From contig CAVQFA010000003.1 of assembly GCA_963711735.1 (NCBI GenBank), forward strand, positions 146,971 through 210,970: a stretch of 64,000 bases of DNA, read 5' to 3'. Source of the stretch: Candidatus Gottesmanbacteria bacterium. Its GTDB lineage: Bacteria > Patescibacteriota > Microgenomatia > UBA10105 > UBA927. Positions 15,286 through 36,592 of this stretch are shown here, one piece after another. A program made the position numbers and the translations under genes. The notes beneath the pieces are model-generated. The model made no database searches and was not told the origin of the DNA. It worked only from the letters and a program-made list of their open reading frames with translations. Each line of letters begins with the position of its first letter. Within the stretch, counting starts at the first letter, position 1.

Positions 15286-15289
15286 ACTG

Positions 15290-21034: not shown

Positions 21035-24000
21035 ATGGCAAAATCTATGAGTGAACGGGAACCAACATATACACCGGTAGCAAAAACCATAGAACGCATA
21101 TTAGTGGCAATTGCTAAGCCTGAAAACGCTGAGAAGGTGAAAAAACTTCGAAAAGAAGAAGCCCTGAAAAAAGCACAACAAAGACAGAAAGAAATTTTCA
21201 GCCGTTTTAATAGGGAAAAAAACACGACAAACCCGGAACAAAAAGGAATAAAGGATTATGGGGAAGAGGAAATCAGAAAAGCAAAAGAGATAACGGAAGA
21301 ACTGAAAAGCAGCGGCCAGCACGCATCAAGCAATAAGTGGGTAAGAGAAAACAGATATGGAATTTCTTCAACTCCCGACACTCTTTCCACAGCCAAAATA
21401 CAACTCGAGACAGCGAGAAAAATTGCAGGACATGATAATAGTCCTCTCGGAAACATAAACCCCGAGGACCTGCAGCACAGCTCTGTGGCGGCGTATGCGC
21501 TGGCAGAATGGTCCATGCTTCCTCCTGAATTGCGTAAAAATCCGAACGTCGCGCTTACACAGGCAGCCCGTCTGGCAGCCTCCGTTAACGCAGATATGAG
21601 CGTTGAGGAACTCAACGAAATCAGGAGGGTATTGAACGCCTTTAAAAGTGAAATACGCACGCTCCGCGATGACCCTGATCGCAAAGACGGATTTAACATT
21701 GAGGACCGGAAACTAGACAATATTCTTTCCGAAATGGTCGGAGGTATTGTGACGGACGACAAATTTGTCCTTTTTGATCCCGCAACAGAATTTACCGGAA
21801 CGCTTTCACTGGATCAATCAAATTTAAAAACCCTACTTCAGGATTATAATATACAATTAGACATTTTGGATCCAAACGATGACGAAGCCATAAAATTATT
21901 AGAAAAATTCAGACTAGAGCTTGCTGGAGGAACATACAGAAAGATAGATACAGACCCAAAAAACAAAAGCGGAACCCGAACTGTTCCCATTGACAGAGAT
22001 AAAGCAAGACCCTACATTGATAAGCTTAAAACAAAAATCGAAGAATTACAGGAAAAACAAAAAATAATGCGCCAGGAGCAGTATATCCAAGAAAGGGAAG
22101 CGCAGGAGAGCCAGATGTGGTTAAAACCAAGCGAGGAACTGCATTTCGGAGAGAATCCGGAGGAAGTGTTGGAAGGGTGGATGCGGCGAATATACGCAGA
22201 AAGATCCATGGGAACAGAAGACGTGGCAAATATGAGACTTAGACTGTTCCAATCATTTCTTGTTGGCGATACATGGAAAGCTCTCTATATTAAATTCCAT
22301 CCTGCTGAATTTCCTAAGGGAATGTCGCAGGCAAGGATAGATTCACACATTGAGAGCGTGAGGGAAAGATTGTTTGAATTTACAGAGAAATCAATGATGC
22401 TGAAATTTGCGGCATCATCCATTTGGGATGGGAGTAAAAATTTTGAACAGGCAGTTAACGTTTTACGGAGAGTAGGATCCCGCGGTTGGGAGATTGTATA
22501 TATGGGTAATAACGGTATGAACGGGAAAGCATACGAGATACTTGAAGAAGAACTGTCAATAGTAACAACCAATCCAAAACCGGGAGAAATGCCCCTCCGT
22601 TTATCTTCGGAACTTCTGGAGCGTGCGCTACAAAACACACGCAATCGTATTGAACGGAACAAAACGCAGTATAAAGAAATATTCGGTAAAAAAGTTACCA
22701 CCGAAGACATCAACCATTTTGTCCGTGCGGGTGAGGTGCTTGCCGACGTCAGGCAGAAAGTCGTTCTTGCTGTTATGCGCGGCAGGGGCCCCGGGGAGAG
22801 ACCGCTGTCTGACATAGAGCCTCCTTCATCATCATTTAGAAGCACCAGCTACGCGGAAAATATCGCCGCTGTTATGGACTGGTACCGGTATGGACCGGAA
22901 AAATGGGGATATTTAACTGAGGGGGCCAAACGCGAACTTGAGTTTTCCTGCGAATTCATGGGAACAATCAGCGGGTTTGACAGCACAGTTGATTTAGAGA
23001 TAGCAAAACTGCGCGCCGACGGATCGTATCGCACCGAACGGGATAAAACATTGAAAGAGCGGTGGGGTGAACACTATGAGAATTGGAAAGAGACGAAACA
23101 CATAGATATGCACCTCGCATCATTTGTAGCAGGAACAGGATTATCCGGTGAAATCGCAGATCAGGAATACCGCCGGTTGCTCATGGTCGGGTATGGCAAA
23201 AAACGGCTCGGAGAACTCCTTGAAATGTATGATGTAGATTCCAGTGGTTGGCGCATAGCAATGGTCCTCCAGGAAAACGTACGGTTTTTCAAGGACGCGG
23301 ACACTCGGGCGCTGGGTTACTGGCTCAGATACGCAGGTAACGACTTTTTACGGGCTGAGGCAGGAGAAGCAGATGATGTTTTCCGAAACGGCGCTCACAA
23401 TGCCCAAAAACAATTAGATGAAGTACGGTTTATAGAAAACGGAGTAACGCTTAAAGCCGAGTGGAATGATGATTTCAGCGTATATAACGTTCTGAAACGT
23501 ATCGGAAAATATGAAAGTCACTGGAACGGATTATGGTTATATGAGAAGGGAAACGAAGAGTTTGTTAACTGGTGGAACAGTGCACCTGTTCAGGAGGCAG
23601 CGCGGAAGCTGACGGGATTAGCGGGTGACGTGGATTATATTCAGGCATACCGGTCAGCTATAGAAAAACATTCGTTGATTATAGGTATAGGTGATAAAAC
23701 AAGTCTTCCTGTTGTCGATTATTCCGAAGGAATTGCCGGTTTAACTCCGGAACAAAAACGGGCAGTATCAAAGGCGTTCGGATGCAGCGTTAACCAGGTT
23801 GATACAAATCAGGCAGTACAGAACCACTTTTCATTTATGGGCGAGCTTTCCAAACAAGTGCTGAAAGACGAAGAACTTATGGCATTTAAAGACCCCCGGT
23901 ACCGCCAGTATTTCAAACGGACGCAATTTACCGGAGACGCGCGTCTCGGGATGATAGAGGACCTTGAACGTTTGCCGGAAGGAGCACCGGGAAGCACGGT

Positions 24001-24685
24001 CCGTACCGGCGCAAAAGCAAAATCCGAAGCAGAGGCAAAAATAAAACGGTATTCTACAATAAGTACCGCAGAGGGAGAGGGAAGCACGGATCAGATGGTT
24101 CGGGCTTGGAACGACCTATCTACGTTTGGCATGCAGCTGCCGATTTTGTTAAAAAGTATTTACGAAGCCACAAACGAAAAAACGTTACTTGAGGGTTTAA
24201 CTAAACTTGTGGGTACTGAAGAACCGTATGCCGGAAAACAGGATGCACTCCTGGCATCAACTGCAATTCTTGCAGGATACGGCCGGATGGGAAAAGTAGA
24301 GAGTTTTTGGGTCGATTTGTGGGGAATGGATAATCTGCCCTGGACAACAGAATCAAAAAGGTATCTGGGAGATATGGGGATGGTTTTACAGCATAGAGAC
24401 CTACACCAATTGAAGGAAAAGTGGGAGCTTATACAATCCCGGCTCGAACTTTATCCTGAGTTGAAACCGGTAGTTGAAGCACTTGATGGGTATTGGGGTT
24501 CGTCCTGGAAACGATTGGATGGCGTACGGAAGGGGCTTCCTTTTATGAAAGATGAAGTATTCTGGTTGATGCAGAGTAAAAACGCCGTATTCATCGGAGC
24601 CGGCATTCTCATTGCTTTACTTGGAAAAGAAGCATTTAGTTCTATGGGCGCTTCAACCAGCGGGGGCGAATCCCATCATTCTTAG
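21035..24685 (+). CDS. giant (1216 aa) Lys/Glu-rich hypothetical protein with C-terminal TM anchor
   Basis: Continuous 3.65-kb ORF. No signal peptide; C-terminal hydrophobic 'VFIGAGILIALLG'. No recognisable catalytic motif. Confidence 0.6.
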   Translation: MAKSMSEREPTYTPVAKTIERILVAIAKPENAEKVKKLRKEEALKKAQQRQKEIFSRFNREKNTTNPEQKGIKDYGEEEIRKAKEITEELKSSGQHASSNKWVRENRYGISSTPDTLSTAKIQLETARKIAGHDNSPLGNINPEDLQHSSVAAYALAEWSMLPPELRKNPNVALTQAARLAASVNADMSVEELNEIRRVLNAFKSEIRTLRDDPDRKDGFNIEDRKLDNILSEMVGGIVTDDKFVLFDPATEFTGTLSLDQSNLKTLLQDYNIQLDILDPNDDEAIKLLEKFRLELAGGTYRKIDTDPKNKSGTRTVPIDRDKARPYIDKLKTKIEELQEKQKIMRQEQYIQEREAQESQMWLKPSEELHFGENPEEVLEGWMRRIYAERSMGTEDVANMRLRLFQSFLVGDTWKALYIKFHPAEFPKGMSQARIDSHIESVRERLFEFTEKSMMLKFAASSIWDGSKNFEQAVNVLRRVGSRGWEIVYMGNNGMNGKAYEILEEELSIVTTNPKPGEMPLRLSSELLERALQNTRNRIERNKTQYKEIFGKKVTTEDINHFVRAGEVLADVRQKVVLAVMRGRGPGERPLSDIEPPSSSFRSTSYAENIAAVMDWYRYGPEKWGYLTEGAKRELEFSCEFMGTISGFDSTVDLEIAKLRADGSYRTERDKTLKERWGEHYENWKETKHIDMHLASFVAGTGLSGEIADQEYRRLLMVGYGKKRLGELLEMYDVDSSGWRIAMVLQENVRFFKDADTRALGYWLRYAGNDFLRAEAGEADDVFRNGAHNAQKQLDEVRFIENGVTLKAEWNDDFSVYNVLKRIGKYESHWNGLWLYEKGNEEFVNWWNSAPVQEAARKLTGLAGDVDYIQAYRSAIEKHSLIIGIGDKTSLPVVDYSEGIAGLTPEQKRAVSKAFGCSVNQVDTNQAVQNHFSFMGELSKQVLKDEELMAFKDPRYRQYFKRTQFTGDARLGMIEDLERLPEGAPGSTVRTGAKAKSEAEAKIKRYSTISTAEGEGSTDQMVRAWNDLSTFGMQLPILLKSIYEATNEKTLLEGLTKLVGTEEPYAGKQDALLASTAILAGYGRMGKVESFWVDLWGMDNLPWTTESKRYLGDMGMVLQHRDLHQLKEKWELIQSRLELYPELKPVVEALDGYWGSSWKRLDGVRKGLPFMKDEVFWLMQSKNAVFIGAGILIALLGKEAFSSMGASTSGGESHHS

Positions 24686-24702: not shown

Positions 24703-25212
24703 TTAACCTCCGTGTTGCTCTTGCTGTTCTCCGGCTTGTTTTGGTTGAGGTGGTGCAAGCTTAGGCCCTTTCAGATTTTTCAGGTAATACGCAGTTGATG
24801 CAAGCTGCATAACCGTTTGATAGGATGATCCTGCGGCTTGTCCAAGCGCTGCTCCGACCGGTACAACCTGTTTTGCTTTCAGACTTTCTTTGAATGCATT
24901 TATAAACTGCGGTATGAGTACAAGTACTGCGATAGAAAACAGGCTTGTAATTGTGTCAGGCGCCACTCCGTTGCCCATAAACAGAGGTGGAGCCCAAAGA
25001 GTTTGATTTTTTCCTCCGATAGAAGCAGAAGAAACTTGGGCCGTAAGTCCGTATGATATAAGCAGTGTGCCGGCGGTTATGGGAAACGCCATGAGGTTTC
25101 CGACAAGTCCGCGTATCCATCCTCCAAACGCGTTATTTCCCGGAATGGCACCGAAGAGAAGCTGTATAGGACCCAGCAGAAGTCCAAGTATGATTTGTAC
25201 GTAACACCCCAA
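24703..25212 (-). CDS. VirB6/TrbL-like protein, C-terminal portion (different frame; probable continuation of 25077..25973)
   Basis: Further TM helices and a Gln/Pro-rich tail 'PPQPKQAGEQQEQHGG', typical of TrbL C-termini. Overlaps the upstream ORF by 136 nt. Confidence 0.5.
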   Translation of the reverse strand: MGCYVQIILGLLLGPIQLLFGAIPGNNAFGGWIRGLVGNLMAFPITAGTLLISYGLTAQVSSASIGGKNQTLWAPPLFMGNGVAPDTITSLFSIAVLVLIPQFINAFKESLKAKQVVPVGAALGQAAGSSYQTVMQLASTAYYLKNLKGPKLAPPQPKQAGEQQEQHGG

Positions 25213-25973
25213 CAGCGTGAAAAAAATGCGGACGTCACAAACAGAAGGAAAATCGCTAAAAGAAAAAGGATTATAAGCGAAATCCCGCCAACACCAACCA
25301 GCGCAGCCACTGCGAGAAAAGGGACAATGGGCGCTGTTATTCCCAGACCCAACAGTATTACTCCCGCCGCAAGAGTCGATACTCCGCCGGCTACAATTGT
25401 AGGTCCTGGCCCAACCACATCTATGAGCATTCCAAACAGGCTACCGGCTCCGAGCGGAAATAATAAATCTATTCCATCCTTTAGCTTGGCACCGAGGAAC
25501 GCATTGATGACATCGGGTGTCACCTGGATAATTCCTGACTGACCAAAAAGTCCGATTACCAGAAGAATGAGAAGATACATTATATCAATGAGTATCGCAA
25601 CAATTGCATAAGAGAATGTGATGAGAAGAAGCGTCACGACTATTTTAGGCAGGGAATTTTGGACTGTAATTACCGTTTTAGGATCTATTTTTTTCCGAAA
25701 CATGATCATAAACCCAATAATAATCATGACGACAGCAGGAATGGCATACGATATATTTCTGAACACTTTCCACATAGGGAGAAGCGGAGCCAATCCGGCA
25801 AACCCGATTCCCTGAGCGTATGTTTGTTTGGGAATAAACCCGAGCGATTGTCCTGTGTCGTTTATAAAAGCGCTATGTGGACGCTGGAGGGCTTTGATAC
25901 ATTGGATAATTGAGTTTGTGAACCCCAACAAAGCACCGCTTTTTTTTTCACCCGTTCTGCATATTCGGATCAT
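25077..25973 (-). CDS. VirB6/TrbL-like polytopic membrane protein, N-terminal portion
   Basis: Multiple TM helices: 'AIPAVVMIIIGFMIMF', 'IVVTLLLITFSYAIVAILIDIMYLLILLVIGLF', 'GGVSTLAAGVILLGLGITAPIVPFLAVAALVGVGGISLIILFLLAIFLLF'. Confidence 0.55.
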   Translation of the reverse strand: MIRICRTGEKKSGALLGFTNSIIQCIKALQRPHSAFINDTGQSLGFIPKQTYAQGIGFAGLAPLLPMWKVFRNISYAIPAVVMIIIGFMIMFRKKIDPKTVITVQNSLPKIVVTLLLITFSYAIVAILIDIMYLLILLVIGLFGQSGIIQVTPDVINAFLGAKLKDGIDLLFPLGAGSLFGMLIDVVGPGPTIVAGGVSTLAAGVILLGLGITAPIVPFLAVAALVGVGGISLIILFLLAIFLLFVTSAFFSRCWGVTYKSYLDFCWVLYSFSSVPFREITRLEDGYADLSETSWRFP

Positions 25974-26295
25974 TTTTATACGTGCCTTCGGGAACAGTTA
26001 CACCTTCAACAGCGCCAAAATTTGTTCTGTAATGACGTTCATGATTATCAAGACTAGCGGAAAAAATGTATGACGATTTGTTTACGTTGCCGGTTTGGTC
26101 AGTAGCCTGCCTCCCTTGAGGGTAGCTCGTAGTCCAGTCGTTGGATTGTGCAAAGATCCGTGGTGAATGGACGGCAAACAATCCAATGAAAATAAGCATA
26201 ACCGCAACGGCCGTCTGTCGGAGGAAACATAAGCGACGCAATCTGTCAAAGGTATTCATATATGTATTATCCCAAAAACGTATAAGCGAAATCAA
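25948..26295 (-). CDS. small secreted hypothetical protein
   Basis: Signal peptide 'AVAVMLIFIGLFAVHSPRIFAQS'. Lies between the pilin array and the VirB6-like gene. Confidence 0.45.
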   Translation of the reverse strand: MISLIRFWDNTYMNTFDRLRRLCFLRQTAVAVMLIFIGLFAVHSPRIFAQSNDWTTSYPQGRQATDQTGNVNKSSYIFSASLDNHERHYRTNFGAVEGVTVPEGTYKNDPNMQNG

Positions 26296-26304
26296 GAAAA
26301 CTTT

Positions 26305-26625
26305 TCATGGTATTATCGTAATTGAAAATTTCGTTACGTCAACACCCGTGAATTCTTTGATAAGAAGAAGGATGAGATACGCAACTGCTATAATCACAAG
26401 CCCGATGATTGCTCCGGTTATCGTACCTTTTGCCTTTTCAAGCTTTTTCTGGTCGCCTCCCGCAAAGAGGAAGTTGAACCCTCCCATGACGAGCATGAGA
26501 AACAGTCCGATACCCGCAATGGCGATAATAAAACGGAGAACGTTTTCAAAAAGCGGCTCGAGACACGCAATCTGCGCCACATCATCGCCATTTGGAAGAC
26601 AACTACTCCAGTCAACAAACGCCAT
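26305..26625 (-). CDS. VirB2/TrbC-like T4SS pilin paralog 1
   Basis: Two hydrophobic helices flank the family motif 'MGGFNFLFAGGDQKKLEKAKGTITGAIIGLVIIAVAYLIL'. Own promoter and an upstream terminator. Confidence 0.7.
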   Translation of the reverse strand: MAFVDWSSCLPNGDDVAQIACLEPLFENVLRFIIAIAGIGLFLMLVMGGFNFLFAGGDQKKLEKAKGTITGAIIGLVIIAVAYLILLLIKEFTGVDVTKFSITIIP

Positions 26626-26704
26626 ATATTCTCATTATCACCCAGAAAATATATTTATACAAGAACACGGTAGGGTACATAATGTAGAGAATGCCACCAA
26701 AAAC

Positions 26705-26733
26705 CCCGCTTTTGGCGGGGTTTATCGAAATTC
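26705..26733 (-). terminator. Rho-independent terminator after pilin gene 2
   Basis: 'aaaaaCCCCGCttttgGCGGGGttt' is a GC hairpin flanked by T/A runs on both strands. Confidence 0.55.
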
Positions 26734-26741
26734 ACAAAAAA

Positions 26742-27116
26742 TTATGGTGTATACGGAAGAGGTATCTTTACTCCTGATCCCAAAAGCGTAATACCAAGGA
26801 ATTGCTGTACCAGCATCATGATTGCCCACGCTGCTCCGACAATAATAAGTCCGACAACTGCATGCGTGATTTTGTTGCGTGCTGCCTCCATACCGGACTT
26901 GTCGCCGCCCGCGGTGATCCATTGAATTCCGCCGAGAATGAGATAAAGAAACGCAAGAAGCGCAGCTATGATCATAAGCAAACCGACAGCGGCTCCGATA
27001 AGCTCACCCAGACTTGTGATCTTAATAAGTTCCGTGTTTCTGGTAACTGCTATTGTGCTGGGATCGTCCTGTGCATATATAACTGGTGCTAAGAAATTCA
27101 TACGTTCCTCCTTCAA
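26742..27116 (-). CDS. VirB2/TrbC-like T4SS pilin paralog 2
   Basis: 'LILGGIQWITAGGDKSGMEAARNKITHAVVGLIIVGAAWAIMMLV'. Confidence 0.7.
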   Translation of the reverse strand: MKEERMNFLAPVIYAQDDPSTIAVTRNTELIKITSLGELIGAAVGLLMIIAALLAFLYLILGGIQWITAGGDKSGMEAARNKITHAVVGLIIVGAAWAIMMLVQQFLGITLLGSGVKIPLPYTP

Positions 27117-27207
27117 TGTATACTATAGTTGATTATATCGTACCTCTAATTGTGTCGCAACTCTTCCTACTTTGTCAATACACGCAATATGAGATCAGGT
27201 GTACACA

Positions 27208-27627
27208 TCAGCACGGTTGTCCCGGTGCGCACGTTGGGGCGGGTACTCCCCCGGGTCCGACATTTGATGGAGAAAGAACGCTGGGAAAAGGAATGTTCGG
27301 GAAAGAAATTCCAAAAAATGTGCCAAGAAAAAGCATAATTGCCCAGACGGATCCCACAATGAGAAGGCCGACAATTGCATGCGTTATTTTATTCCGTGCA
27401 TCCTCTAGCTTCGCTTTGTCTCCGCTTGCTGTAATCCATGATATACCGCCAAGAAGGAGATATACGAGGGCAAAAATGAACGAGAATATAAAAAACGCAG
27501 CAATAAAAGCACCCAATAAAGATCCAAAAACTAAACCTCCGGTTGTATATTCACCCGGATTTCCGCTTCCGCCCAAAAACGAAGGTAAAACAGGATTTTT
27601 CAGTTGTGCTAAAAGATGTGTGCTCAT
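27208..27627 (-). CDS. VirB2/TrbC-like T4SS pilin paralog 3
   Basis: 'LLLGGISWITASGDKAKLEDARNKITHAIVGLLIVGSVWAIMLFL'. Confidence 0.7.
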   Translation of the reverse strand: MSTHLLAQLKNPVLPSFLGGSGNPGEYTTGGLVFGSLLGAFIAAFFIFSFIFALVYLLLGGISWITASGDKAKLEDARNKITHAIVGLLIVGSVWAIMLFLGTFFGISFPNIPFPSVLSPSNVGPGGVPAPTCAPGQPC

Positions 27628-27630
27628 ATA

Positions 27631-28065
27631 TTATGGTGTTCCTCCGCTTCCGGGCAGCTCAAGCTGTTGTATTACCGTTGCCGGATCTATAAGCGTGTCA
27701 AACCCGAAGAACATCCCGACAAGCGCGAGTATCGCCCAACCCGCAATAACGATGACAAGACCGATAAACGCGTTCGTTATTCTGTCTCTTGCCTGTTGGA
27801 GTTTTCCCTTGTCTCCGCCTGAGGTAAGCCAGTTCAAGCCTCCCACAAGGAACTGGAAGATAAACCAGATAAGTGCAGCAATTGTCATGATGCCGATGAT
27901 GGATGATACGACCTGAGTGACTTTGGTAAGTGCACTGACCGCACCGGCACTTCCTCTGCCTATAACATCGGACCCGATGTTTCCAAACGGACCTAACCCC
28001 CCTCCGCCAATCGTTCCGAGGTCAGTGCCAACAGGATCTGCTGCATAAATGTGTTCTGATATCAT
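27631..28065 (-). CDS. VirB2/TrbC-like T4SS pilin paralog 4
   Basis: 'FLVGGLNWLTSGGDKGKLQQARDRITNAFIGLVIVIAGWAILALV'. The gap to paralog 3 is 3 nt. Confidence 0.7.
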   Translation of the reverse strand: MISEHIYAADPVGTDLGTIGGGGLGPFGNIGSDVIGRGSAGAVSALTKVTQVVSSIIGIMTIAALIWFIFQFLVGGLNWLTSGGDKGKLQQARDRITNAFIGLVIVIAGWAILALVGMFFGFDTLIDPATVIQQLELPGSGGTP

Positions 28066-28068
28066 AAA

Positions 28069-28437
28069 TTAGTTACCCGGACCATATATTTTCGGATTCA
28101 GCATGAATCCGGGATCTCCGAATATCAGGTATCCGAAAAGTGCTGCCAGCACAAATGATCCGATGAGAATGACAAGTCCGATAAGCGACTGCCAGATTCT
28201 CGCCCAGGCAGCAGTGAGCGCCTTTGCATCACCTGCCGCCGTCATATACTGATATCCGGCTATTATAATATTAAAAAAAGCAAACGCCCCCGTCACGGAA
28301 AATATAAGGCGGAGAACGTTAGTCAGAAGCGCAATGATACCCGTGTTATAAGAGCCATACGACGCGTTCATGGGGTTTGTAACAGTGCCGATAACTGATG
28401 ATGCGTCTGCAAGCACTTGTATATAATTCATAGACAA
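28069..28437 (-). CDS. VirB2/TrbC-like T4SS pilin paralog 5 (more divergent)
   Basis: 'IIAGYQYMTAAGDAKALTAAWARIWQSLIGLVILIGSFVLAALFG'. Confidence 0.65.
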   Translation of the reverse strand: MSMNYIQVLADASSVIGTVTNPMNASYGSYNTGIIALLTNVLRLIFSVTGAFAFFNIIIAGYQYMTAAGDAKALTAAWARIWQSLIGLVILIGSFVLAALFGYLIFGDPGFMLNPKIYGPGN

Positions 28438-28447
28438 TAAATATGTA

Positions 28448-28759
28448 CTACGGCAATGGCGCCGAAAGGAGCGTCATGCCTGTTAATTTTTCCAATATTT
28501 GGACGATCCAGTACGATACGACAATCAGGATAAGACCCAGAACCGCTCCTGTTATCGTTTTTTGTCCCTGTTCGAGCTTTTTGGTATCACCGGCTCCAGC
28601 GCCCATTATAACGCCGAATCCGCCCAACACCAAGAGGAGGAAGGTGAGAACCGCCGCTAACATAAAAGCATTTTTTACGATGATGTTCACGAGATCACCA
28701 AATGATGCAATCGGAGACGGAGCAACGGTGCCAAGATCCAGAGCAAAAACACGGTTCAT
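28448..28759 (-). CDS. VirB2/TrbC-like T4SS pilin paralog 6 (first in operon)
   Basis: 'LLVLGGFGVIMGAGAGDTKKLEQGQKTITGAVLGLILIVVSYWIVQILEKL'. Confidence 0.7.
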   Translation of the reverse strand: MNRVFALDLGTVAPSPIASFGDLVNIIVKNAFMLAAVLTFLLLVLGGFGVIMGAGAGDTKKLEQGQKTITGAVLGLILIVVSYWIVQILEKLTGMTLLSAPLP

Positions 28760-28799
28760 ATCTACTAGTGTACGGAATCGGTAATTGCCTTGTCAATCC

Positions 28800-28854: not shown

Positions 28855-29406
28855 GTGGAAAACAAGGAAGATACAAAAGAGATTGTTGCACGCATACTTG
28901 CCCGGGACAAAAACGCGCTTCTGAAATTTTACCGTACGTATGCGCCGCAAATCCGAAGGCATATCGCACATAAAATTCACGACCCTTCTGACGTAGAAGA
29001 AGTACTGCAGGATACCCTCTATGCATTTTTGGAAAGCATACGCGATTTTACGTATGCCGCAAGCATCCGGACATATGTATTTTCCATATGCCGCCATAAA
29101 ATTGCAGATTACTACCGGAAGCGTGAGATCAAACACGCTGTGTTTTCACGCATACCGCAGCTTGAAGCGCTCATCATGCCTCTCGTGTCGAGTGAAGAAA
29201 AGCTTGATGCAGAACTTATGTCTAAAAATGTAGTACAAACACTCGGTCGTTTAATGCCCGCTTACAAGGACGTGTTGTCGCTTCGGTATATTGACGGCAT
29301 GGCAGTTTCTGATGTAGCACAGAAGCTCGCGCTCACAGTTAAAAGCGCCGAATGCAAGCTGTTTCGTGCCAAAAAAGCATTTGTAAAAGCATTCATTGCA
29401 ACCTAG
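28855..29406 (+). CDS. ECF-type sigma-70 family RNA polymerase sigma factor
   Basis: Region 2-like 'LQDTLYAFLESIRDF...YVFSICRHKIADYYRKR'. Region 4 helix-turn-helix 'LSLRYIDGMAVSDVAQKLALTVKSAECKLFRAKKAF'. Confidence 0.75.
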   Translation: MENKEDTKEIVARILARDKNALLKFYRTYAPQIRRHIAHKIHDPSDVEEVLQDTLYAFLESIRDFTYAASIRTYVFSICRHKIADYYRKREIKHAVFSRIPQLEALIMPLVSSEEKLDAELMSKNVVQTLGRLMPAYKDVLSLRYIDGMAVSDVAQKLALTVKSAECKLFRAKKAFVKAFIAT

Positions 29407-29416
29407 AAAGATTTAT

Positions 29417-29647
29417 ATGTCTGACATAACGTACCGACACTTTGTTAAACGATGGCAGGAGGTAACGGATCTCCCGACACAAACAGTCGGACCGCTCACA
29501 CCCCTCTATAAATTTGTTGCATCCAGGCTCAAAACCATGCCGTGGTTTGCTCTCATTGTTATCAGCGTATGCGGGGTTGGTTTGCTTTATGTGCTTATCG
29601 GATCCACAATTACGCTCCTCACGTCCATTCTCCAGCGAGGGTTTTAA
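29417..29647 (+). CDS. candidate anti-sigma factor (small single-pass membrane protein)
   Basis: Immediately downstream of the ECF sigma gene. Single TM 'WFALIVISVCGVGLLYVLIGSTITLL'. Confidence 0.4.
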   Translation: MSDITYRHFVKRWQEVTDLPTQTVGPLTPLYKFVASRLKTMPWFALIVISVCGVGLLYVLIGSTITLLTSILQRGF

Positions 29648-29653
29648 GTCCCT

Positions 29654-30301
29654 TTGTACGACTATATATATATGGGCACCGGAACCGTTTGCGGAATTAT
29701 TGAAAGCGGGATTGGCTTTGTGAAGCACACTGCCGGACTCGTCACTAAACCGTACGAAACATACAGAAACATCGTTTTAAAAGAAGACATCCGTGAAATT
29801 ATCTATATCGGGTGTGTCGTCGGTTTGTATTTTGCCCTGGCATCTCTTATCAGGACAGCCGCATTCCGTCCGTTTTTACTCACAAAGCAATTTATTGTTC
29901 TTGCGGGAGGAGCGTTTGCGGGATATATGCTGGCCTCAGGTATGCTTTGGGTTTCCGGACGGATTCTGGGGGCACGTACCTCTTTGAAAACAGTAATGAC
30001 AGCATGGGGGTATTCGCTTCTGCCGACTGTCGCGTGGTTTATGATGACGTCTGTACTGTATATTGTTCTGCCGCCCCCGAGGACAACACACATAGCGGGT
30101 ATTGTATTTAGTGCGGTATATTTGACAATTTCTGTATCTATCCTGTTTTGGAAAGTAATATGTGCGTATTTAGCTGTCAGATTCAGCATGAAGTTTGATC
30201 TTGTGAGAATTTGTACGGTATACGCCATAACATTACCGGTTCTTGTGCTCTATAGCTTTGTCATGTACCGTTTAGGCATTTTCCGCATTCCATTTTTATA
30301 A
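29654..30301 (+). CDS. Yip1-like polytopic membrane protein
   Basis: About five TM helices; composition resembles YIP1-domain proteins. Confidence 0.4.
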   Translation: MYDYIYMGTGTVCGIIESGIGFVKHTAGLVTKPYETYRNIVLKEDIREIIYIGCVVGLYFALASLIRTAAFRPFLLTKQFIVLAGGAFAGYMLASGMLWVSGRILGARTSLKTVMTAWGYSLLPTVAWFMMTSVLYIVLPPPRTTHIAGIVFSAVYLTISVSILFWKVICAYLAVRFSMKFDLVRICTVYAITLPVLVLYSFVMYRLGIFRIPFL

Positions 30302-30305
30302 ATAT

Positions 30306-31517
30306 ATGAACACATCAAACAGAACCTTATCTCCGCACGCACAAATGAAGCTGCATATGATGGATTCTGCAAAAGACAGAAGATCGGTAGTTGAGAAAGA
30401 GCGCCGCGTTGTACTTCCTCAAATCGCAGCATTCAGTTTCGATGAGGATGTGGCGGGGAGCCACAACTGCGAAAACCTTATCGGAGGAACACAGATTCCT
30501 CTGGGGATTGCAGGGCCAATTCACATTAAACCCCGTGCGGATTATTTTATCCCTTTGGCAACGACAGAAGGTGCGCTTGTCGCATCAGTTAACCGCGGGT
30601 GTAATGCCATATCTCAAAGCGGTGGCGCATCAGTTTTGGTTGTCCGTGTGGGAGCTACCCGCGGGCCGGTATTTAAAGTGAAATCAATGGCCGAAAATTC
30701 GTCTCTGTATGATTTTATTTATTCAAATGAAGACACTATACGTAAAATTGCGGAATCTACATCACATCATTTAAAGTTATTACACATTGAAACAAACAGC
30801 GTTGGTTTGTACCGGTTTATCCGGTTTGTGTACGATACCAAAGACGCCATGGGGCTTAATATGGTTACTATCGCAACCGACGTGGTTGTTACATATATTG
30901 AAAAGGAAACCGGGGCAGTCTGTGTCAGTCTGTCCGGTAATTACTGTACGGATAAAAAAGCTTCATGGTTAAACGTGGTGAGTGGTAGGGGGTTTGAGGT
31001 ATGGGCGGAGGCGGTTATTCCGTCTGACATAGTACGCACCATACTAAAAACGACACCTCAGGCTGTTTATCAGACATGGCTGTCCAAGTGTATGATCGGA
31101 AGCGCCATGTCAGGGTCACTTGGATTTAACGCGCAGTATGCCAACATTCTGTCTGCACTCTTTATCGCAACCGGTCAGGATCCTGCACACGTGGCAGAGT
31201 GTGCGGTGGGAATTACGACGGCAGAAGTTGTTGGTGGCACATTGTCGGGTGACGATAAACAAAAAGAGAGTTTATATATGAGTATATATCTGCCGGACGT
31301 GATGGTGGGGACTGTCGGCGGAGGAACGGGACTTCCGACACAGAAAGAAGCACTGTCAATTCTGGGTGTGTCCGGAGGAAATGACGGAAAAAATTCGGAA
31401 AAGCTAGCTGAAATAGTCGGTGGCGCAGTGCTCGCAGGTGAAGTGTCATTCTTAGTCTCACTTTCTGAAGGTTCTTTAGCCCGTGCGCACATAAAACTGG
31501 GAAGAGGAGGGAAATGA
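30306..31517 (+). CDS. hydroxymethylglutaryl-CoA reductase
   Basis: 'ENLIGGTQIPLGIAGPIHIK', '...ATTEGALVAS' and 'DAMGLNMV' are HMGR catalytic motifs. The exact start is uncertain because several in-frame Met residues are candidates. Confidence 0.85.
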   Translation: MNTSNRTLSPHAQMKLHMMDSAKDRRSVVEKERRVVLPQIAAFSFDEDVAGSHNCENLIGGTQIPLGIAGPIHIKPRADYFIPLATTEGALVASVNRGCNAISQSGGASVLVVRVGATRGPVFKVKSMAENSSLYDFIYSNEDTIRKIAESTSHHLKLLHIETNSVGLYRFIRFVYDTKDAMGLNMVTIATDVVVTYIEKETGAVCVSLSGNYCTDKKASWLNVVSGRGFEVWAEAVIPSDIVRTILKTTPQAVYQTWLSKCMIGSAMSGSLGFNAQYANILSALFIATGQDPAHVAECAVGITTAEVVGGTLSGDDKQKESLYMSIYLPDVMVGTVGGGTGLPTQKEALSILGVSGGNDGKNSEKLAEIVGGAVLAGEVSFLVSLSEGSLARAHIKLGRGGK

Positions 31518-31580
31518 GTGATGAGTGGTCGGTTGTGAGCATAAACTCACAACCCACAACTTACAACTTACAACTCGATT

Positions 31581-32627
31581 ATGGTAGACATTATTTCATA
31601 CGGGACATATATTCCGAAATACCGGATCCGTACCGCGGATATTGCCGATGTTTGGAAAAAAAACGCGGACGAAATCATACACTCACTGGGAATAAAAGAG
31701 AAAAGTGTTCCGGCTATAGATGAGGATGCGGTGACAATAGCCATAGAGGCGGCTCTTGGGTGTTTCCGTGTGCAGAAAACCGGCAAACCGTCTGATACAG
31801 GAGCGTTGTTTGTCGGTTCTGAAAGTCATCCGTATGCCGTAAATCCCACCTCTACGATCGTAGGGGATTTTTTGGGTATCGGAAACAATTACCTCGCTGC
31901 GGATTTGGAGTTTGCGTGCAAAGCAGGAAGCGCCGGAATGCAGGCACTTGCCGGGCTTATCGCGTCCGGCCAATACGCGTTTGGTTTGGCAATCGGCGCA
32001 GATACCGCACAGGGAAGACCTCATGATGTTTTGGAATACACCTCAGCAGCGGCAGGTGCAGCGTTTCTTCTCGGAAAAACTGATGGTATAGCCCGATTAG
32101 TGGGATATACATCCTATTCCTCCGATACACCGGATTTCTGGCGCCGCGACGGTATCAGGTATCCAAGCCACGCCGGACGGTTTACAGGAGAGCCTGCATA
32201 TTTCACCCATGTGGTCGGTGCAGCAAGGCAATTGTTTGAAAGAGAGCACATTCAACCGGAAAAAGTGGATTACTGCGTGTTTCATATGCCCAACGGAAAG
32301 TTTCCCCGTGATGTAGCAAAGCGGCTCGGATTTACCCCGAAACAGTTAGCACCGTCCCTGACAGTTGATGCAATCGGCAACCCGTATTCTGCGTCATCGC
32401 TTTTGGGACTTGCCGCACTTTTGGATGTTGTCGAACCGAATAAAACGATCTTTATGGTGTCATACGGATCGGGAGCAGGCAGCGACGCGTTTTTATGGAA
32501 AACAACCAACCGGATACGCGATATACAAAGAAACAGAAAACACGAAAGATGTACCGTACATGATCAGACGGAAAACGAGTCGTATATCAACTACACGGAA
32601 TATTTAAAGAAAACAAATAAAATATGA
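31581..32627 (+). CDS. archaeal-type hydroxymethylglutaryl-CoA synthase
   Basis: 'MVDIISYGTYIPKYRIRTADIADVW...AIDEDAVTIAIEAA' and 'YGSGAGSDAF'. ATGA overlap with the thiolase gene downstream. Confidence 0.85.
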   Translation: MVDIISYGTYIPKYRIRTADIADVWKKNADEIIHSLGIKEKSVPAIDEDAVTIAIEAALGCFRVQKTGKPSDTGALFVGSESHPYAVNPTSTIVGDFLGIGNNYLAADLEFACKAGSAGMQALAGLIASGQYAFGLAIGADTAQGRPHDVLEYTSAAAGAAFLLGKTDGIARLVGYTSYSSDTPDFWRRDGIRYPSHAGRFTGEPAYFTHVVGAARQLFEREHIQPEKVDYCVFHMPNGKFPRDVAKRLGFTPKQLAPSLTVDAIGNPYSASSLLGLAALLDVVEPNKTIFMVSYGSGAGSDAFLWKTTNRIRDIQRNRKHERCTVHDQTENESYINYTEYLKKTNKI

Positions 32628-33775
32628 CAATTTCAATCATAGGCGCTGCAACGACAAAATTCGGAGAACTCTGGGACACGTCTCCCCGTACCCTTGCCGG
32701 GCGCGCGGCAATAGGTGCAATAGAAAACGCAGGTATCACGAGGAAAGACATTGACGGGTTGTTTGTTGGTAACATGCTGTCGGGCATTCTCGGCGGCCAG
32801 GAACACCTGGGAGCGTTTTTTTCTGAAGAACTTGGTCTGGGTGTGCCGGCATGTAAAGTAGAGGGAGCATGTGCATCCGGCGGACTTGCGGTTCATGCTG
32901 CGTATATAGCTGTTGCATCCGGTGAGTATGACACGGTACTGGTTCTCGGAATAGAAAAAATGACGGATTATAAACCGGAAGAAGTGGCAACTGCGCTTAT
33001 GGGGGCAGGGAGCGACGATGAAAGGATGGCAGGGGCAACGTTTCCGGGTTTATATGCGATAATGGCCCGCTCGCATATGGACATGTACGGAACCACACCC
33101 GAAGATCTGGCATCGGTTGCCGTTAAAAATCATTTTCATGCAAGTTTCAATCCCAACGCCCAGTTTCACGCGCTTTTAACCGTTGAACAAGTGCTTACGT
33201 CATCATGCGTTGCTGACCCTTTGAGGCTTCTGGATTGCTCTCCCATATCCGACGGTGCATCAGCAATCGTCATTACCTCCAAGGAGGGGAAAATAAGGAG
33301 AAAAGGAGCAATATCTATTGCCGCTTCGGTTGTGGCGACGGATTCGCTCGGACTGTTCGGACGGAAAAGTCTGACAGGGTTGTCTGCAACGGACAAAGCA
33401 GCCAAACATGCGTATGAAAAAGCAGGGATAGGGCCTAAAAACATTGATGTTGCAGAAGTGCATGATTGTTTTACCATCGCGGAAATTTTTGCTATGGAAG
33501 ATTTAGGAATATATAAAAAAGGAGATGCAGCCGGACGTATAAGCAGGGGAGAAACGAAACTTGATGTTTCCAAACATCTCGTCGTAAACCCTTCAGGGGG
33601 GCTTAAAGGTTGCGGACATCCGGTAGGGGCAACGGGAGTTAAACAAATTGCGGAAATTGTCGAACAACTCCGTGGAAATGCAGGGAAACGGCAGGTAAGC
33701 GGAGCGCATATCGGTCTGACACATAATGTCGGAGGAAGCGGAGCGACGGCAGTCGTGCATATATTAAAAAAATAA
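32624..33775 (+). CDS. acetyl-CoA acetyltransferase (archaeal-type thiolase)
   Basis: 'VEGACASGGLAVHAAYIAVASGEYD' carries the active-site Cys; 'NPSGGLKGCGHPVGATGV'. Confidence 0.85.
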   Translation: MTISIIGAATTKFGELWDTSPRTLAGRAAIGAIENAGITRKDIDGLFVGNMLSGILGGQEHLGAFFSEELGLGVPACKVEGACASGGLAVHAAYIAVASGEYDTVLVLGIEKMTDYKPEEVATALMGAGSDDERMAGATFPGLYAIMARSHMDMYGTTPEDLASVAVKNHFHASFNPNAQFHALLTVEQVLTSSCVADPLRLLDCSPISDGASAIVITSKEGKIRRKGAISIAASVVATDSLGLFGRKSLTGLSATDKAAKHAYEKAGIGPKNIDVAEVHDCFTIAEIFAMEDLGIYKKGDAAGRISRGETKLDVSKHLVVNPSGGLKGCGHPVGATGVKQIAEIVEQLRGNAGKRQVSGAHIGLTHNVGGSGATAVVHILKK

Positions 33776-33802
33776 TTGGATTACGTTAAGTAACTTAATT
33801 GT

Positions 33803-34103
33803 ATGATGAGTCCTGTTAAACTTTGGAGAAATCAGAAAAAAACACGGAAACTGGTTGACAAAACCGGCACGGTTATATCCTGGACTATTGTGCGCGTACC
33901 GCCCAGCGGTTTTGTGTCACAGGCTCCCTATGTTGTAGCGGTTCTTGAGCTTAACCGACACAAGCCGCATTATGTGCCAGCTTGCAGACTGCAGTGAAAA
34001 TGATGTGAAAACAGGACAGACATGCAGACTTGTAATCAGGAAAATCGGCGAACAGGGGACAGACGGGATTATACAGTACGGGATAAAAGCGAAGATTATA
34101 TGA
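33803..34103 (+). CDS. DUF35 OB-fold scaffold protein of the thiolase/HMGCS complex, with an apparent +1 frame break near 33966
   Basis: N-terminus 'TGTVISWTIVRVPPSGFVSQAPYVVAVLELNRHKP' in frame 0. The C-terminus 'IMCQLADCSENDVKTGQTCRLVIRKIGEQGTDGIIQYGIKAKII' reads in frame +1 and ends in an ATGA overlap with idi. Confidence 0.5.
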
Positions 34104-34657
34104 ATACGAACAGAAACGTGATAGTTGTAGACAATAACGATACTCAAATCGGAGAACTCGGTATTATAAAAGCCCATACAGGAGGCGGCACGCTTCATCG
34201 GGCTTTATCAGTTCTGTGCTTTCGGGAATCATCAGGGGGTCCTGAGATATTGCTTCAGAAACGGAGCAAGACAAAAACGCTTTGGGGTGGATTCTGGACC
34301 AACACCATTTGTACGCACCCGGCACCACATGAAACAACGGGAAGTGCGGGAGCAAGAAGACTGAAAGAGGAAATGGGGATTGATATTTCCGAAAAAAAAC
34401 TCACCTTTCTTTACTCGTTTGTCTACCGAGCGCAATACACAAAAACACTCAGTGAACACGAGTACGATCATATTTTTGCAGCTAAATGGAATGGGGCATG
34501 TGTGATGAATCCCAAAGAGGCAGATGACGCAAAATGGTCATCTTTGTCACGTCTCAGGAAAGATATGCATGGCAATCCTCATGTATATACTCCATGGTTT
34601 CATTTAATTATGAACGACAAGCGGACAGTACGGTATTTTGACAATATAACGGCATAA
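34100..34657 (+). CDS. idi: isopentenyl-diphosphate delta-isomerase, type 1 (Nudix fold)
   Basis: 'LHRALSVLCFRESSGGPEILLQKRSKTKTLWGGFWTNTICTHP...GSAGARRLKEEMGI'. Confidence 0.8.
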   Translation: MNTNRNVIVVDNNDTQIGELGIIKAHTGGGTLHRALSVLCFRESSGGPEILLQKRSKTKTLWGGFWTNTICTHPAPHETTGSAGARRLKEEMGIDISEKKLTFLYSFVYRAQYTKTLSEHEYDHIFAAKWNGACVMNPKEADDAKWSSLSRLRKDMHGNPHVYTPWFHLIMNDKRTVRYFDNITA

Positions 34658-34660
34658 CAA

Positions 34661-35362
34661 ATGACAACAAACACTAAACCCACGCATATCGCAATTATTA
34701 TGGACGGAAACCGGCGGTGGGCAAAAGCACACAATCTTCCGCCGATTGCCGGACATAAAAAAGTGGCAGATGATATGCTGGAACCTCTCATAGAACACGC
34801 TGCAAAAATAGGAATTAAGTATGTTACTCTCTGGGCATTTTCTACGGAGAACTGGCAGAGGGAACCGGCAGAAGTGCAGGGCATCATGGGGATATTGCGT
34901 AAATCCCTGAAAACATTCGGAGAGAGAATGCATAAAAAAGGAATACGGATACTGACAATAGGAGATCTGTCGCGTTTTGATACGGACATCCAAAAAACTA
35001 TTGCTGATCTGAAAAATCTGACCTGCAATAATAAAAAAATAACGGTTGTTTTTGCGCTCAACTACGGTGGCAGGGACGAAATTATCCGGGCAGCTCAAAA
35101 ATTCAATGACCTGCAATCGGCAACGCGCAACTTACAACTTACCTCTAATACATTTAGTGATTTTCTCGACACTAAAGGAATTCCTGATCCCGAGCTTATT
35201 GTAAGAACCGGCGGTGAGATGAGACTCAGCGGGTTTCTGCTCTGGCAATGCCAGTATAGCGAGTTATATTTTCCTTCCTGGTATATGCCGGAGTTCACAC
35301 CCGTTCGGCTGGATGAGGCAATTCATGAATATGAGCGCCGGACGCGGAGATTCGGGGCTTAA
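34661..35362 (+). CDS. uppS: undecaprenyl (isoprenyl) diphosphate synthase
   Basis: 'HIAIIMDGNRRWAKAHNLPPIAGHKKV...YVTLWAFSTENWQR' and 'RTGGEMRLSGFLLWQ'. Confidence 0.9.
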   Translation: MTTNTKPTHIAIIMDGNRRWAKAHNLPPIAGHKKVADDMLEPLIEHAAKIGIKYVTLWAFSTENWQREPAEVQGIMGILRKSLKTFGERMHKKGIRILTIGDLSRFDTDIQKTIADLKNLTCNNKKITVVFALNYGGRDEIIRAAQKFNDLQSATRNLQLTSNTFSDFLDTKGIPDPELIVRTGGEMRLSGFLLWQCQYSELYFPSWYMPEFTPVRLDEAIHEYERRTRRFGA

Positions 35363-35365
35363 TTC

Positions 35366-35740
35366 TTACGGAGTACCGGGAAACGTTTCCTGTATCGGTG
35401 TAAATCCAAGTATTGTTCCTGCAATCTGGACGATCCAGTATGCTGCGAAAATAAGGAAAAATCCCAAAAGCGCGTTTGTCAGACGCTGTTTGCCCGATTC
35501 CATTTTTTTAGCATCACCCGCAGCGGTAAGGAACGTGAACCCCGCGCTTATGAACATAAGAAGAACCCCGATTCCTGCTGCCGCAAATATATACGGCAGG
35601 GTCATATAAACAATATCACCGATGTGTTTGCCTCCGAATTTAGATGCGAACCCGGACATTTCGTTGGGATAGGGAACATCGGTATGTGTGCCGGGTGTAG
35701 GTCCGGGTAAATGTAATGCCTGTGCGAGCGTGTGATGCAT
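35366..35740 (-). CDS. VirB2/TrbC-like T4SS pilin paralog 7 (distal copy)
   Basis: 'FISAGFTFLTAAGDAKKMESGKQRLTNALLGFFLIFAAYWIVQIAG'. Confidence 0.65.
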   Translation of the reverse strand: MHHTLAQALHLPGPTPGTHTDVPYPNEMSGFASKFGGKHIGDIVYMTLPYIFAAAGIGVLLMFISAGFTFLTAAGDAKKMESGKQRLTNALLGFFLIFAAYWIVQIAGTILGFTPIQETFPGTP

Positions 35741-35744
35741 ATAA

Positions 35745-36592
35745 TTATCCGAATCCCGGTATGCCCAGGATGTCTAAACCAATAAGCCTCAGGATAAACA
35801 GAGAGAAGATAATAAGGATAAGTCCTGTGATAGCTGAGCCCACAAGTTCTTTGCCGGCATTGAGCTGTTCAGGATTACCGGCACTTGTCATAATCTGAAA
35901 CCCGCCAAGTATGATAAGAAGGAACGCAATTCCACCGCCAATCCCTATACCAAAGACGAGAAGCCTTCCGATAAATGCTGCCGGTGTTGTTTCGATACAT
36001 CCGATTGCCGTCCAGGAACCGTGTTTGTTAGTTCAAGCAATCGTAGCATTGCTGCGAGGACTGCCTGAACCAAGTATGACCCCGGGATATAATCGCAGAG
36101 CTGTTGTTACGCTCCCAGGTAAGGCGTACGGAATAATTGGAAGGATCAATGCATGTTTTATTAAAACACGAGCCGGCACTTCCCCCTTCACATACTAATG
36201 GGGATGTACAATCCGAATTATCATCGCAACAGACTATAGGAAGCGTGTCTCCGTCACCAGGATCGGGAACCGGTATAGTTACCTCTAATGTAGGATACGC
36301 TGTTGGGGTAACCTGATTGGCGAGTACACAAGGAAAATATAAATTTCCGACATCACCGATACAGTTCATCGGGCAACTCTCAACAGTCGGTATTTTGGCA
36401 ATCAGCCGGATTTGGTGCATACCCGGAAGCGCAGGTGTTATTGCTTGCTGCAACACAGGATGAACCCGTTGTGAGATAGAGCGTTTCGCAACAGAAAGTG
36501 TTGTCCGGAGGGGCGGCAAACGCATTGTTCACAAAAATAAACCCGGTCAGAAAAATGACGACAATAAATAGAGCAAAACGGATATATTTCAT
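35745..36592 (-). pseudogene. signal peptide + Cys-rich domain + pilin domain in three different frames (pilin paralog 8; fusion gene or pseudogene)
   Basis: Frame 1 reads 'MKYIRFALFIVVIFLTGFIFVNNAFAAPP...CQNTDC'. Frame 0 reads '...CPMNCIGD...CCDDNSDCTSPLVCEGG...QQCYDCLN'. Frame 2 reads '...GIGIGGGIAFLLIILGGFQIMTSAGNPEQLNAGKELVGSAITGLILIIFSLFILRLIG', which carries the pilin motif but has no start codon. Confidence 0.45.

Follow-up and report, generated by a model that had tools for sequence, protein, structure and literature searches.

An ordered array of six T4SS_pilin-family paralogs in the type IV secretion locus of Candidatus Gottesmanbacteria

Much of bacterial diversity belongs to the Patescibacteria, whose members live attached to host cells. 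For the one member that is open to genetic work, both a type IV secretion system (T4SS) and the pilin series that goes with it are essential. We analysed a 64,000-nt stretch of DNA (hereafter the window) from Candidatus Gottesmanbacteria, a lineage of the Microgenomatia (contig CAVQFA010000003.1, positions 146,971-210,970), in which an array of six consecutive minus-strand open reading frames (ORFs) of 103-144 aa occupies positions 26305-28759. Tandem VirB2 arrays have been described in other Patescibacteria. Quinonero-Coronel et al. (2025, Microb Genom, PMC12102498) counted 441 of them, each of 2-11 genes and with a mean identity of 25%, in 383 Patescibacteria assemblies, especially of Microgenomatia and Saccharimonadia; they located the T4SS close to dnaA, reported VirB6 to be scarce in Microgenomatia and suggested an antigenic-variation-like versatility. 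In Southlakia epibionticum, six PF18895 genes (SEML1_0014-0019) lie beside a VirB6-like gene, and each was scored GD/ES/ES (GD, growth defect; ES, essential) by transposon sequencing, Tn-seq (Wang et al. 2023, Cell, PMC10633639). A 2025 FEMS review describes 6 VirB2-like pilins, conserved in structure and divergent in sequence, and regards a pilus as possible in a monoderm. On the Gram-positive plasmid pCF10, PrgF is an essential VirB2-like protein, small, leaderless and with two transmembrane (TM) segments, which is encoded beside virB6 and has been modelled on a VirB6 pentamer (ter Beek et al., bioRxiv 2025, 10.64898/2025.12.18.695078).

The locus in the window is a chromosomal, origin-proximal, monoderm-type T4SS of Candidatus Gottesmanbacteria, and in these respects it resembles the loci of S. 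epibionticum and other Patescibacteria. Its pilin-like genes likewise belong to PF18895 and stand in tandem, the copies are about 25% identical to one another, and the array adjoins a VirB6-like gene. With S. epibionticum it further shares the number of six copies and the layout of a two-ORF VirB4 with PrgI. This kind of array has already been published (2023, 2025); what is new here is the comparative detail across 58 related loci. Overall, and with confidence only a little better than even, we suggest that the array encodes six different, non-redundant VirB2-like subunits of one chromosomal monoderm-type T4SS, with gene 5 as the major subunit and the others as minor ones.

Six ordered paralogs of one pilin family

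The genes are numbered 1-6 in the order of transcription, gene 1 lying at the highest coordinates (Table 1). Genes 2-6 align with gene 1 at 22-38% identity, and six core columns (G47, G57, D58, I69, G75 and L76 in gene 1 numbering) are invariant throughout. When all six frames of the window were translated and searched with a profile of the paralogs, every array member came up (E 1e-34 to 1e-41), and so did one more copy at 35366-35740 and another at about 35748-36095; the eight are homologous to one another (E 1e-12 to 1e-41). The six array genes are true paralogs. An earlier note on this DNA had described six small paralogous genes of 103-144 aa, on which ORFs, alignment and profile agree, and its mention of 'eight paralogs' finds its explanation in the two copies that the profile recovers outside the array. 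The consensus block that it had written out for all copies proved approximate: four copies fit 26-27 of its 28 specified positions, genes 1 and 2 fit only 18 and 15, and an exact fit was found for 0/6. Its remark that the leader and the C-terminal tail diverge most agrees with the alignment, where the copies differ most in their exposed parts at either terminus.

The true starts of genes 2 and 5 are likely ATG 28431 and ATG 27101. For gene 5 the resulting 119-aa form is identical to a public record (P0001), and the ATG is preceded by GGAGG. With these starts the intergenic gaps from gene 1 to gene 6 measure 16, 3, 3, 106 and 116 nt, so the lower end of the 3-100 nt range given earlier is right and the upper end is slightly exceeded. 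Antisense ORFs at 26141-26791, 27086-27916 and 28443-28784 gave no family matches and were dismissed as shadow ORFs.

A scan of a genome collection with the three closer paralogs as query returned 315 related stretches, of which the best 80 were examined (L001-L080). Nearly all of these 80 come from Candidatus Gottesmanbacteria and other Microgenomates metagenome-assembled genomes (MAGs). Some MAGs (L001, L002, L004, L006 and others) are titled 'uncultured Gammaproteobacteria bacterium'; their loci are colinear with and 60-70% identical to those of Gottesmanbacteria, and the titles look like placeholder or wrong taxonomy. Counts for the array refer below to 58 loci with a six-gene run, and counts for synteny to 43 full loci.

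The six-gene run keeps the same order in the 58 related loci. The best match of each window gene is its positional counterpart in 41-58 of them (gene 1, 57/58; gene 2, 58/58; gene 3, 51/58; gene 4, 41/58; gene 6, 58/58). Across these loci identity is 47-67% between genes at the same position versus 21-44% between different positions, and gene 5 is the most conserved (67% cross-genome identity). At the protein identities of these orthologues (47-67%), synonymous sites are saturated for a dN/dS scan. Position-specific hidden Markov models (HMMs) trace the order 1-2-3-4-5-6 into Collierbacteria and Woesebacteria, where an extra 4-like or 5-like copy is present. Relatives also conserve the spacing: 3 nt separate the neighbours among genes 1-4, gene 5 follows gene 4 after about 88 nt, and gene 6 comes about 52 nt behind gene 5. 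Judged by these sequence comparisons, the six genes are ancient, ordered, position-specific orthologous groups.

All six array proteins match the Pfam family PF18895 (T4SS_pilin), at 21.3, 23.1, 28.3, 27.9, 39.8 and 40.6 bits for genes 1-6. Four of these values lie above the curated gathering cut-off (26.6 bits, whole-protein HMM score); genes 1 and 2 fall below it, yet they are clear paralogs of the four passing copies. The database homologues of gene 5 all contain PF18895, and the PF18895-type family comprises 75,010 proteins of a representative library at E <= 1e-3 and 10,793 at E <= 1e-10. Together with the array, T4SS genes are kept in synteny in 28-41 of the 43 full loci. The assignment to a T4SS pilin family made in the earlier note therefore stands on the PF18895 matches, the conserved T4SS neighbourhood and the occurrence of the same arrays in the Patescibacteria literature. 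The seven intact paralogs of the window also align over nearly the whole of the 80-position NCBIfam model NF045849, which stands for a pilin-like conjugal transfer protein of Mycoplasma; the match is weak but consistent (17-22.6 bits, E 6e-5 to 3.5e-3, far under the 40-bit cut-off) and hints that the family may be native to the monoderm lineage of mating-pair formation class FATA (MPF-FATA). A sequence search of the PDB with the six-paralog profile returned nothing relevant.

Hairpin architecture, expression signals and the adjoining polytopic protein

Hydropathy and charge analysis found exactly two hydrophobic segments, joined by a K/R-rich loop (TKKLEQGQ in gene 1), in every array protein. 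The AlphaFold2 (AF2) model of gene 5 is a hairpin (H31-63/H68-102) with a predicted local distance difference test score (pLDDT) above 90 and disordered termini, so the two hydrophobic helices per copy that had been noted earlier are seen in 6/6 proteins by hydropathy and in the model of gene 5. The loop carries basic charge; the N-terminal tails are acidic or neutral. In the position-6 proteins a pair of Cys residues (C9 and C21; window 26563-26601) is all-or-none: among 59 sequences, 32 have both, 27 have neither and 0 have a single one. This pattern suggests a disulfide and an extracytoplasmic N-terminus of the position-6 proteins. Charge and Cys pair thus agree in indicating a predicted N-out, C-out, loop-in topology, like that of mature VirB2-type pilins.

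The N-terminal region, previously described as a variable leader, is not a signal peptide, since there is no third hydrophobic segment and only 3-nt gaps separate genes 3 and 4 from the preceding stop. A longer upstream start that would add a hidden signal peptide was ruled out, as stops occur in frame and intergenic gaps measure only 3 nt. The N-termini are conserved per position and carry signatures such as LG.IGG.GLGPFG (position 3) and LAQ..NPV.P (position 4). In addition, a short N-terminal motif, M-x(0-4)-[EKR]-[KR]-[VIL]-[FLY]-A-[QA]-[DE] (MEKIFAQ(D/E) type, 5-9 residues), occurs at all six positions. It was found in 206 of 354 array proteins (58%) versus 5% of control ORFs, with examples in the window at 27101-27070 and 28065-28040. 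The motif, which may be a vestige or a signal, aligns with the signal-peptide cleavage region of some position-6 orthologues and of poly-pilin fusions, the hydrophobic core being missing.

These fusions, from the representative library, are single polypeptides with 2-16 tandem T4SS_pilin hairpins behind one signal peptide (P0241, P0243, P0245, P0259 and P0279); one example has 552 aa and six pilin domains. On inspection, P0241, P0243 and P0245 are genuine fusions with no stop-codon read-through. Fusion of hairpins in tandem is topologically possible because both hairpin termini lie on the same side, and the existence of fused pilin domains implies that such domains can act together in one structure.

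Gene 5 differs from its neighbours in its expression signals. A strong Shine-Dalgarno (SD) sequence precedes position 5 in 48/58 loci and each other position in 0-2/58; in the window it is the GGAGG at 27111-27107, 5 nt before the ATG. A hairpin with a T-run follows position 5 in 12/58 loci versus 0-3/58 for the other positions. The hairpin terminator of the earlier note is real in the window (26723-26699, -17.8 kcal/mol). That note had also made 26305-26625, gene 6, a unit with its own promoter: the upstream terminator is there, but the promoter scan ahead of the gene found no consensus site reaching the scan threshold. We therefore infer separate transcription of gene 6 solely from the terminator and the gap. 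The promoter candidate of genes 1-4 falls in the region shared with the divergent gene for an extracytoplasmic function (ECF) sigma factor.

Downstream, a gene for a polytopic membrane protein starts 46 nt past gene 6; it directly follows the array in 41/43 loci. Its counterparts in relatives are single ORFs of 470-520 aa with a signal peptide (494-501 aa in L046 and L003). The AF2 model of one homologue (P0122, pLDDT 74) has chains of R388 TrwI/VirB6 as its top PDB matches in Foldseek (8rtd_L, 8rt9_F and 7o3v_F/G). This polytopic and only weakly VirB6-like protein probably serves as the assembly platform, and it is a candidate VirB6 for a class in which VirB6 was reported to be scarce. In the window the gene is broken up into three frames; read against homologues, the frame switches lie close to an A9 and a T7 tract but outside them. 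Since many A7-A8 tracts also occur in intact genes, slippage at homopolymers and errors in sequencing were both rejected as the source of the breaks.

Readings of the array

If the six proteins co-assemble as non-redundant subunits, each would enter the membrane as a helical hairpin with its termini outside and the GGD..K...R..IT loop in the cytoplasm, and with no classical cleaved signal peptide. Subunits would then be pulled from the membrane onto the downstream polytopic VirB6-like protein, and the VirB4 ATPase would power their assembly into a single pilus-like conduit, common to all six, that leads to the host cell and may serve interaction with it. The bulk (major) subunit would come from gene 5, which is the most conserved and has its own promoter-like sites, the sole strong SD and a terminator. 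Genes 1-4, which are translationally packed and have no SD, and gene 6, with its putative N-terminal disulfide and its place beside the VirB6-like gene, would encode low-abundance specialised subunits, the minor five acting in initiation, tip or adaptor roles. This assembly mechanism is drawn by analogy with the R388 and PrgF/PrgH models. One major and five minor subunits are suggested because only position 5 combines a strong SD with the highest conservation; non-redundancy is argued from positional orthology, fixed order, position-specific motifs and the essentiality of the six S. epibionticum genes.

Several results weigh against such a model. HMM scoring against pilin models, proposed earlier as a check, gave matches to PF18895 for 6/6 array copies and to PF04956 (TrbC/VirB2) for 0/6, even at E <= 1, while authentic plasmid VirB2 proteins match PF04956 at 63-78 bits and do not match PF18895. 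Comparison by hhalign of the alignment of these pilins from the Candidate Phyla Radiation (CPR) gave a probability of 2.4% against seven authentic VirB2 proteins and of 0.6% against a single PrgF sequence, in both cases with a sensitivity limited by the small template alignments. The shared block, which the earlier note called the signature of T4SS pilins, is hence not a signature of VirB2/TrbC. The array proteins are a Patescibacterial T4SS_pilin family, 'VirB2-like' by architecture and context, without demonstrable sequence homology to VirB2; a distant tie to PF04956 is conceivable because two S. epibionticum array members were reported with weak PF04956 matches (Wang et al. 2023, PMC10633639). 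The polytopic protein belongs to no Pfam family, its 40 homologues show no TrbL match, hhalign against PrgH gave 0.5%, and the matches of P0122 to TrwI/VirB6 are weak (E 0.08-0.5, prob 0.69-0.92, TM-scores 0.2-0.4). As the VirB6-like gene is frame-broken, the T4SS here might be non-functional as sequenced. SD strength and conservation are indirect proxies for abundance, and the Tn-seq essentiality of upstream genes may be partly a polar effect. Finally, no filament or pilus has been observed in the literature for any Patescibacteria T4SS.

A bolder form of this model, which we hold to be doubtful, pictures a heteropolymeric monoderm pilus or conduit built from six anciently diverged subunits. 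Position 5 would be major, the five minor subunits would replace VirB5 and the initiation function, a divergent VirB6 would serve as platform, and the MEKIFAQ-type motif would be a new recognition or processing signal substituting for the Sec leader.

It is also imaginable, although in our view unlikely, that the hairpins oligomerise in the cytoplasmic membrane as a ring or channel, c-ring- or collar-like around VirB6/VirB3, and never form an extracellular filament. The architecture speaks for both sides here: the hairpin fold is equally typical of rings, whereas two TM segments with a charged cytoplasmic loop and outside termini are exactly the architecture of mature VirB2/PrgF. Fold searches were uninformative, with ATP-synthase subunit c among the Foldseek matches, and in Table S2 of Wang et al. 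the ECOD match of SEML1_0018 is ATP-synthase subunit c. Polypeptides in which 6-16 hairpins are covalently fused recall fused ring subunits. The absence of a signal peptide and of a VirB5-like tip protein, like the missing observation of a pilus, favours a ring; however, labelling of PrgF loop residues blocked transfer, in support of extrusion from the membrane. The 20-47-aa N-terminal extensions with their putative disulfide and the Cys-rich paralog suggest exposed surfaces, a feature that would be compatible with a ring too.

The earlier note had seen several pilin variants in the array, possibly serving surface variation or separate types of pilus. On this reading, which is also the suggestion of Quinonero-Coronel et al. 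(2025), the copies would be interchangeable major subunits that take turns or act in different hosts, giving antigenic, surface or host-range variation or distinct pili. We regard this as improbable. Identity within the array is indeed low (22-40%) and divergence peaks in the exposed terminal parts, but the exposed N-terminal parts hold conserved motifs specific to each position. Bartonella and Anaplasma, with their arrays of VirB2 paralogs, provide a precedent (cited in Quinonero-Coronel et al. 2025, PMC12102498). However, variation systems show lineage-specific expansion and turnover, and we found neither lineage-specific amplification nor rapid turnover in the 58 loci: copy number, order and positional orthology are fixed among these genomes, and order and position identity extend to several Microgenomatia candidate phyla, Collierbacteria and Woesebacteria among them. 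Promoter-like and terminator signals do split the array into at least 2-3 units; against this, a strong SD is present at one position only, and all six genes are essential by Tn-seq in S. epibionticum. A chance Pfam likeness of unrelated small membrane proteins (holin-like or bacteriocin-immunity-like) is very improbable, for although 2/6 copies fall below the PF18895 cut-off, two-helix hydrophobic proteins draw spurious low-complexity matches and the fold searches were uninformative, this idea is effectively refuted by the conserved T4SS synteny and by the family evidence (eight mutually homologous copies, thousands of representatives at E <= 1e-10, and the same family essential within the S. 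epibionticum T4SS cluster).

The window offers a clean Microgenomatia example in which a vague 'variable pilin array' becomes a testable model: the set and order of the six subunits are fixed, a conserved ribosome-binding site singles out one as abundant, and a VirB6 candidate lies beside them. The model of non-redundant subunits points experimenters to the subunit for tagging and imaging and to the pairs for co-modelling.

The T4SS neighbourhood and known systems

Patescibacterial VirB2-like arrays (Quinonero-Coronel et al. 2025) comprise at least two pilin genes, in tandem or with one gene between them, in genomes that encode a VirB4 of the Patescibacteria clade, and usually lie near dnaA. 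Similarly, the six tandem pilin genes of the window are accompanied by a VirB4-like gene and lie near dnaA (Table 1). In relatives, the order downstream of the array is a ~500-aa polytopic protein, a ~1200-aa protein, NadE, VirD4, PrgI and VirB4; divergently upstream lie an ECF sigma factor, a small membrane protein, Yip1 and mevalonate-pathway genes.

Table 1. Features of the window, by coordinate
Feature	Coordinates	Strand	Remarks
Second, short/partial VirD4-like ORF, 265 aa	45-842	+	TraG-D_C and T4SS-DNA_transf; about 17 kb from the full-length one
dnaA	6919-8364		Origin marker
dnaN	8546-9655		Origin marker
M23 protein, 889 aa	10690-13359	-	PF01551, C-terminal
VirB4-like ATPase, 631 aa (13390-15285), and separate 192-aa ORF	13390-15868	-	TraG P-loop, AAA_10, DUF87
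PrgI/VirB3-like protein, 424 aa	16010-17284	-	PF12666, 33 bits
VirD4-type coupling protein, 723 aa	17427-19598	+	TraG-D_C, TrwB_AAD_bind, T4SS-DNA_transf
1216-aa protein	21035-24685	+	No Pfam family; C-terminal TM segment; converges on VirB6-like gene
Polytopic membrane protein gene	24703-26258	-	Split into frames 26258-25948, 25973-25077 and 25212-24703
Pilin-like gene 6 (position 6)	26305-26625	-	106 aa; Cys residues C9 and C21 in the N-terminal tail
Intrinsic terminator after gene 5	26699-26723	-	AAACCCCGC-CAAAA-GCGGGGTTTTT; -17.8 kcal/mol, z = -2.2
Pilin-like gene 5 (position 5)	26742-27101/27116	-	119/124 aa; candidate major subunit
Two overlapping promoter-like sites before gene 5	27132-27178	-	TTGACA-18-CACAAT and TTGCGA-17-TATAAT; consensus matches
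Pilin-like gene 4 (position 4)	27208-27627	-	139 aa; Pro/Gly-rich C-terminal tail
Pilin-like gene 3 (position 3)	27631-28065	-	144 aa; Gly-rich N-terminal segment
Pilin-like gene 2 (position 2)	28069-28431/28437	-	120/122 aa; most divergent core
Pilin-like gene 1 (position 1)	28448-28759	-	103 aa; opens tightly packed four-gene block
Sigma-70-like promoter candidate, genes 1-4	28767-28796	-	TTGACA-18-TACACT; consensus match only
ECF-type sigma factor	28855-29406	+	Sigma70_r2, r4_2; divergent from array; beside array in 36/43 loci
Seventh pilin-like paralog, 124 aa	35366-35740	-	Profile E 2e-21; weak NF045849 match
Eighth pilin-domain gene	35748-36592	-	Frame breaks and in-frame TGA 36035-36033

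By its position, the 889-aa M23 protein is a candidate T4SS cell-wall hydrolase, analogous to VirB1/PrgK. The 192-aa ORF next to the VirB4-like ATPase weakly matches positions 144-233 of a Mycoplasma VirB4 model and is N-terminal-domain-like. S. epibionticum has the same two-ORF VirB4 layout (SEML1_0009/0008; Wang et al. 2023, PMC10633639), and the split thus seems native to Patescibacteria. At the site of the 1216-aa protein, L046 and L003 have one of similar length, and tblastn detects the 1216-aa protein in 6/43 loci at 26% identity. No relaxase was seen among the window ORFs scanned, in which no search aimed at relaxases was made.

On the other side of the array, 28855-30301 (+) encodes the ECF sigma factor, then a membrane protein of 83 aa that may be an anti-sigma factor, then a Yip1 protein; this set is conserved in 35-36 of the 43 loci and may regulate the pilin operon. 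Between the pilin loci, at 30306-35362 (+), follow genes of the mevalonate pathway and isoprenoid synthesis, namely for HMG-CoA reductase, an HMG-CoA synthase-like protein and a thiolase, as well as two more ORFs at 34022-34657 and 34661-35362; the three enzyme genes are syntenic in most relatives. The seventh and eighth pilin genes lie 6.6 kb from the array, and the pair is kept 6-8 kb from it in several relatives. There the eighth gene product (206 aa in L001:1696-2316) begins with a signal peptide, followed by a Cys-rich domain predicted to be extracellular and then the hairpin, and it could be an adhesin- or tip-type pilin.

Within the Patescibacteria, the window genome (Microgenomatia/Gottesmanbacteria) stands apart from the saccharimonadial S. 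epibionticum: it encodes a VirD4 coupling protein, which was reported missing there, and its pilins have a short MEKIFAQ-type N-terminus and no Sec signal peptide, unlike those of S. epibionticum. Diderm TrbC/VirB2 proteins (T-pilus, RP4, R388 TrwL) share with the array the two-helix hairpin, a basic loop predicted to be cytoplasmic, outside termini, and association with genes for VirB4, VirB3 and a VirB6-like protein. The array proteins differ from them in having no HMM or profile similarity, no 30-50-aa cleavable leader (which true VirB2 proteins do show), no VirB5 partner, a monoderm envelope and multiple fixed paralogs. Like the array, the Mycoplasma protein Mbov_0395 (NF045849), from an integrative and conjugative element, belongs to a wall-less or monoderm MPF-FATA-type system, but it is single-copy and carried on a mobile element.

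At 103-144 aa, within the 50-150 aa range of Gram-positive VirB2-like proteins, and with two TM segments and a tentative VirB6-like gene downstream, the array proteins have the size, topology and neighbour of PrgF(B2) of Enterococcus pCF10 and other Gram-positive plasmids. Both are small, with a short charged cytoplasmic loop and no long leader, both are encoded close to a VirB6-like gene in an MPF-FATA-type T4SS, and the loops align in register by eye. In contrast, profile similarity is nil, PrgF occurs once per plasmid versus six to eight copies here, the CPR proteins carry 20-47-aa N-terminal extensions predicted to be extracellular, and PrgF serves conjugation with a relaxase. Type IV pili and type II secretion system pseudopili differ from the array in fold and machinery, and the class III signal peptide and PilD site are absent here; in organisation only, the array would nevertheless resemble them, with one high-expression major subunit and conserved low-expression paralogs that are co-encoded and jointly needed.

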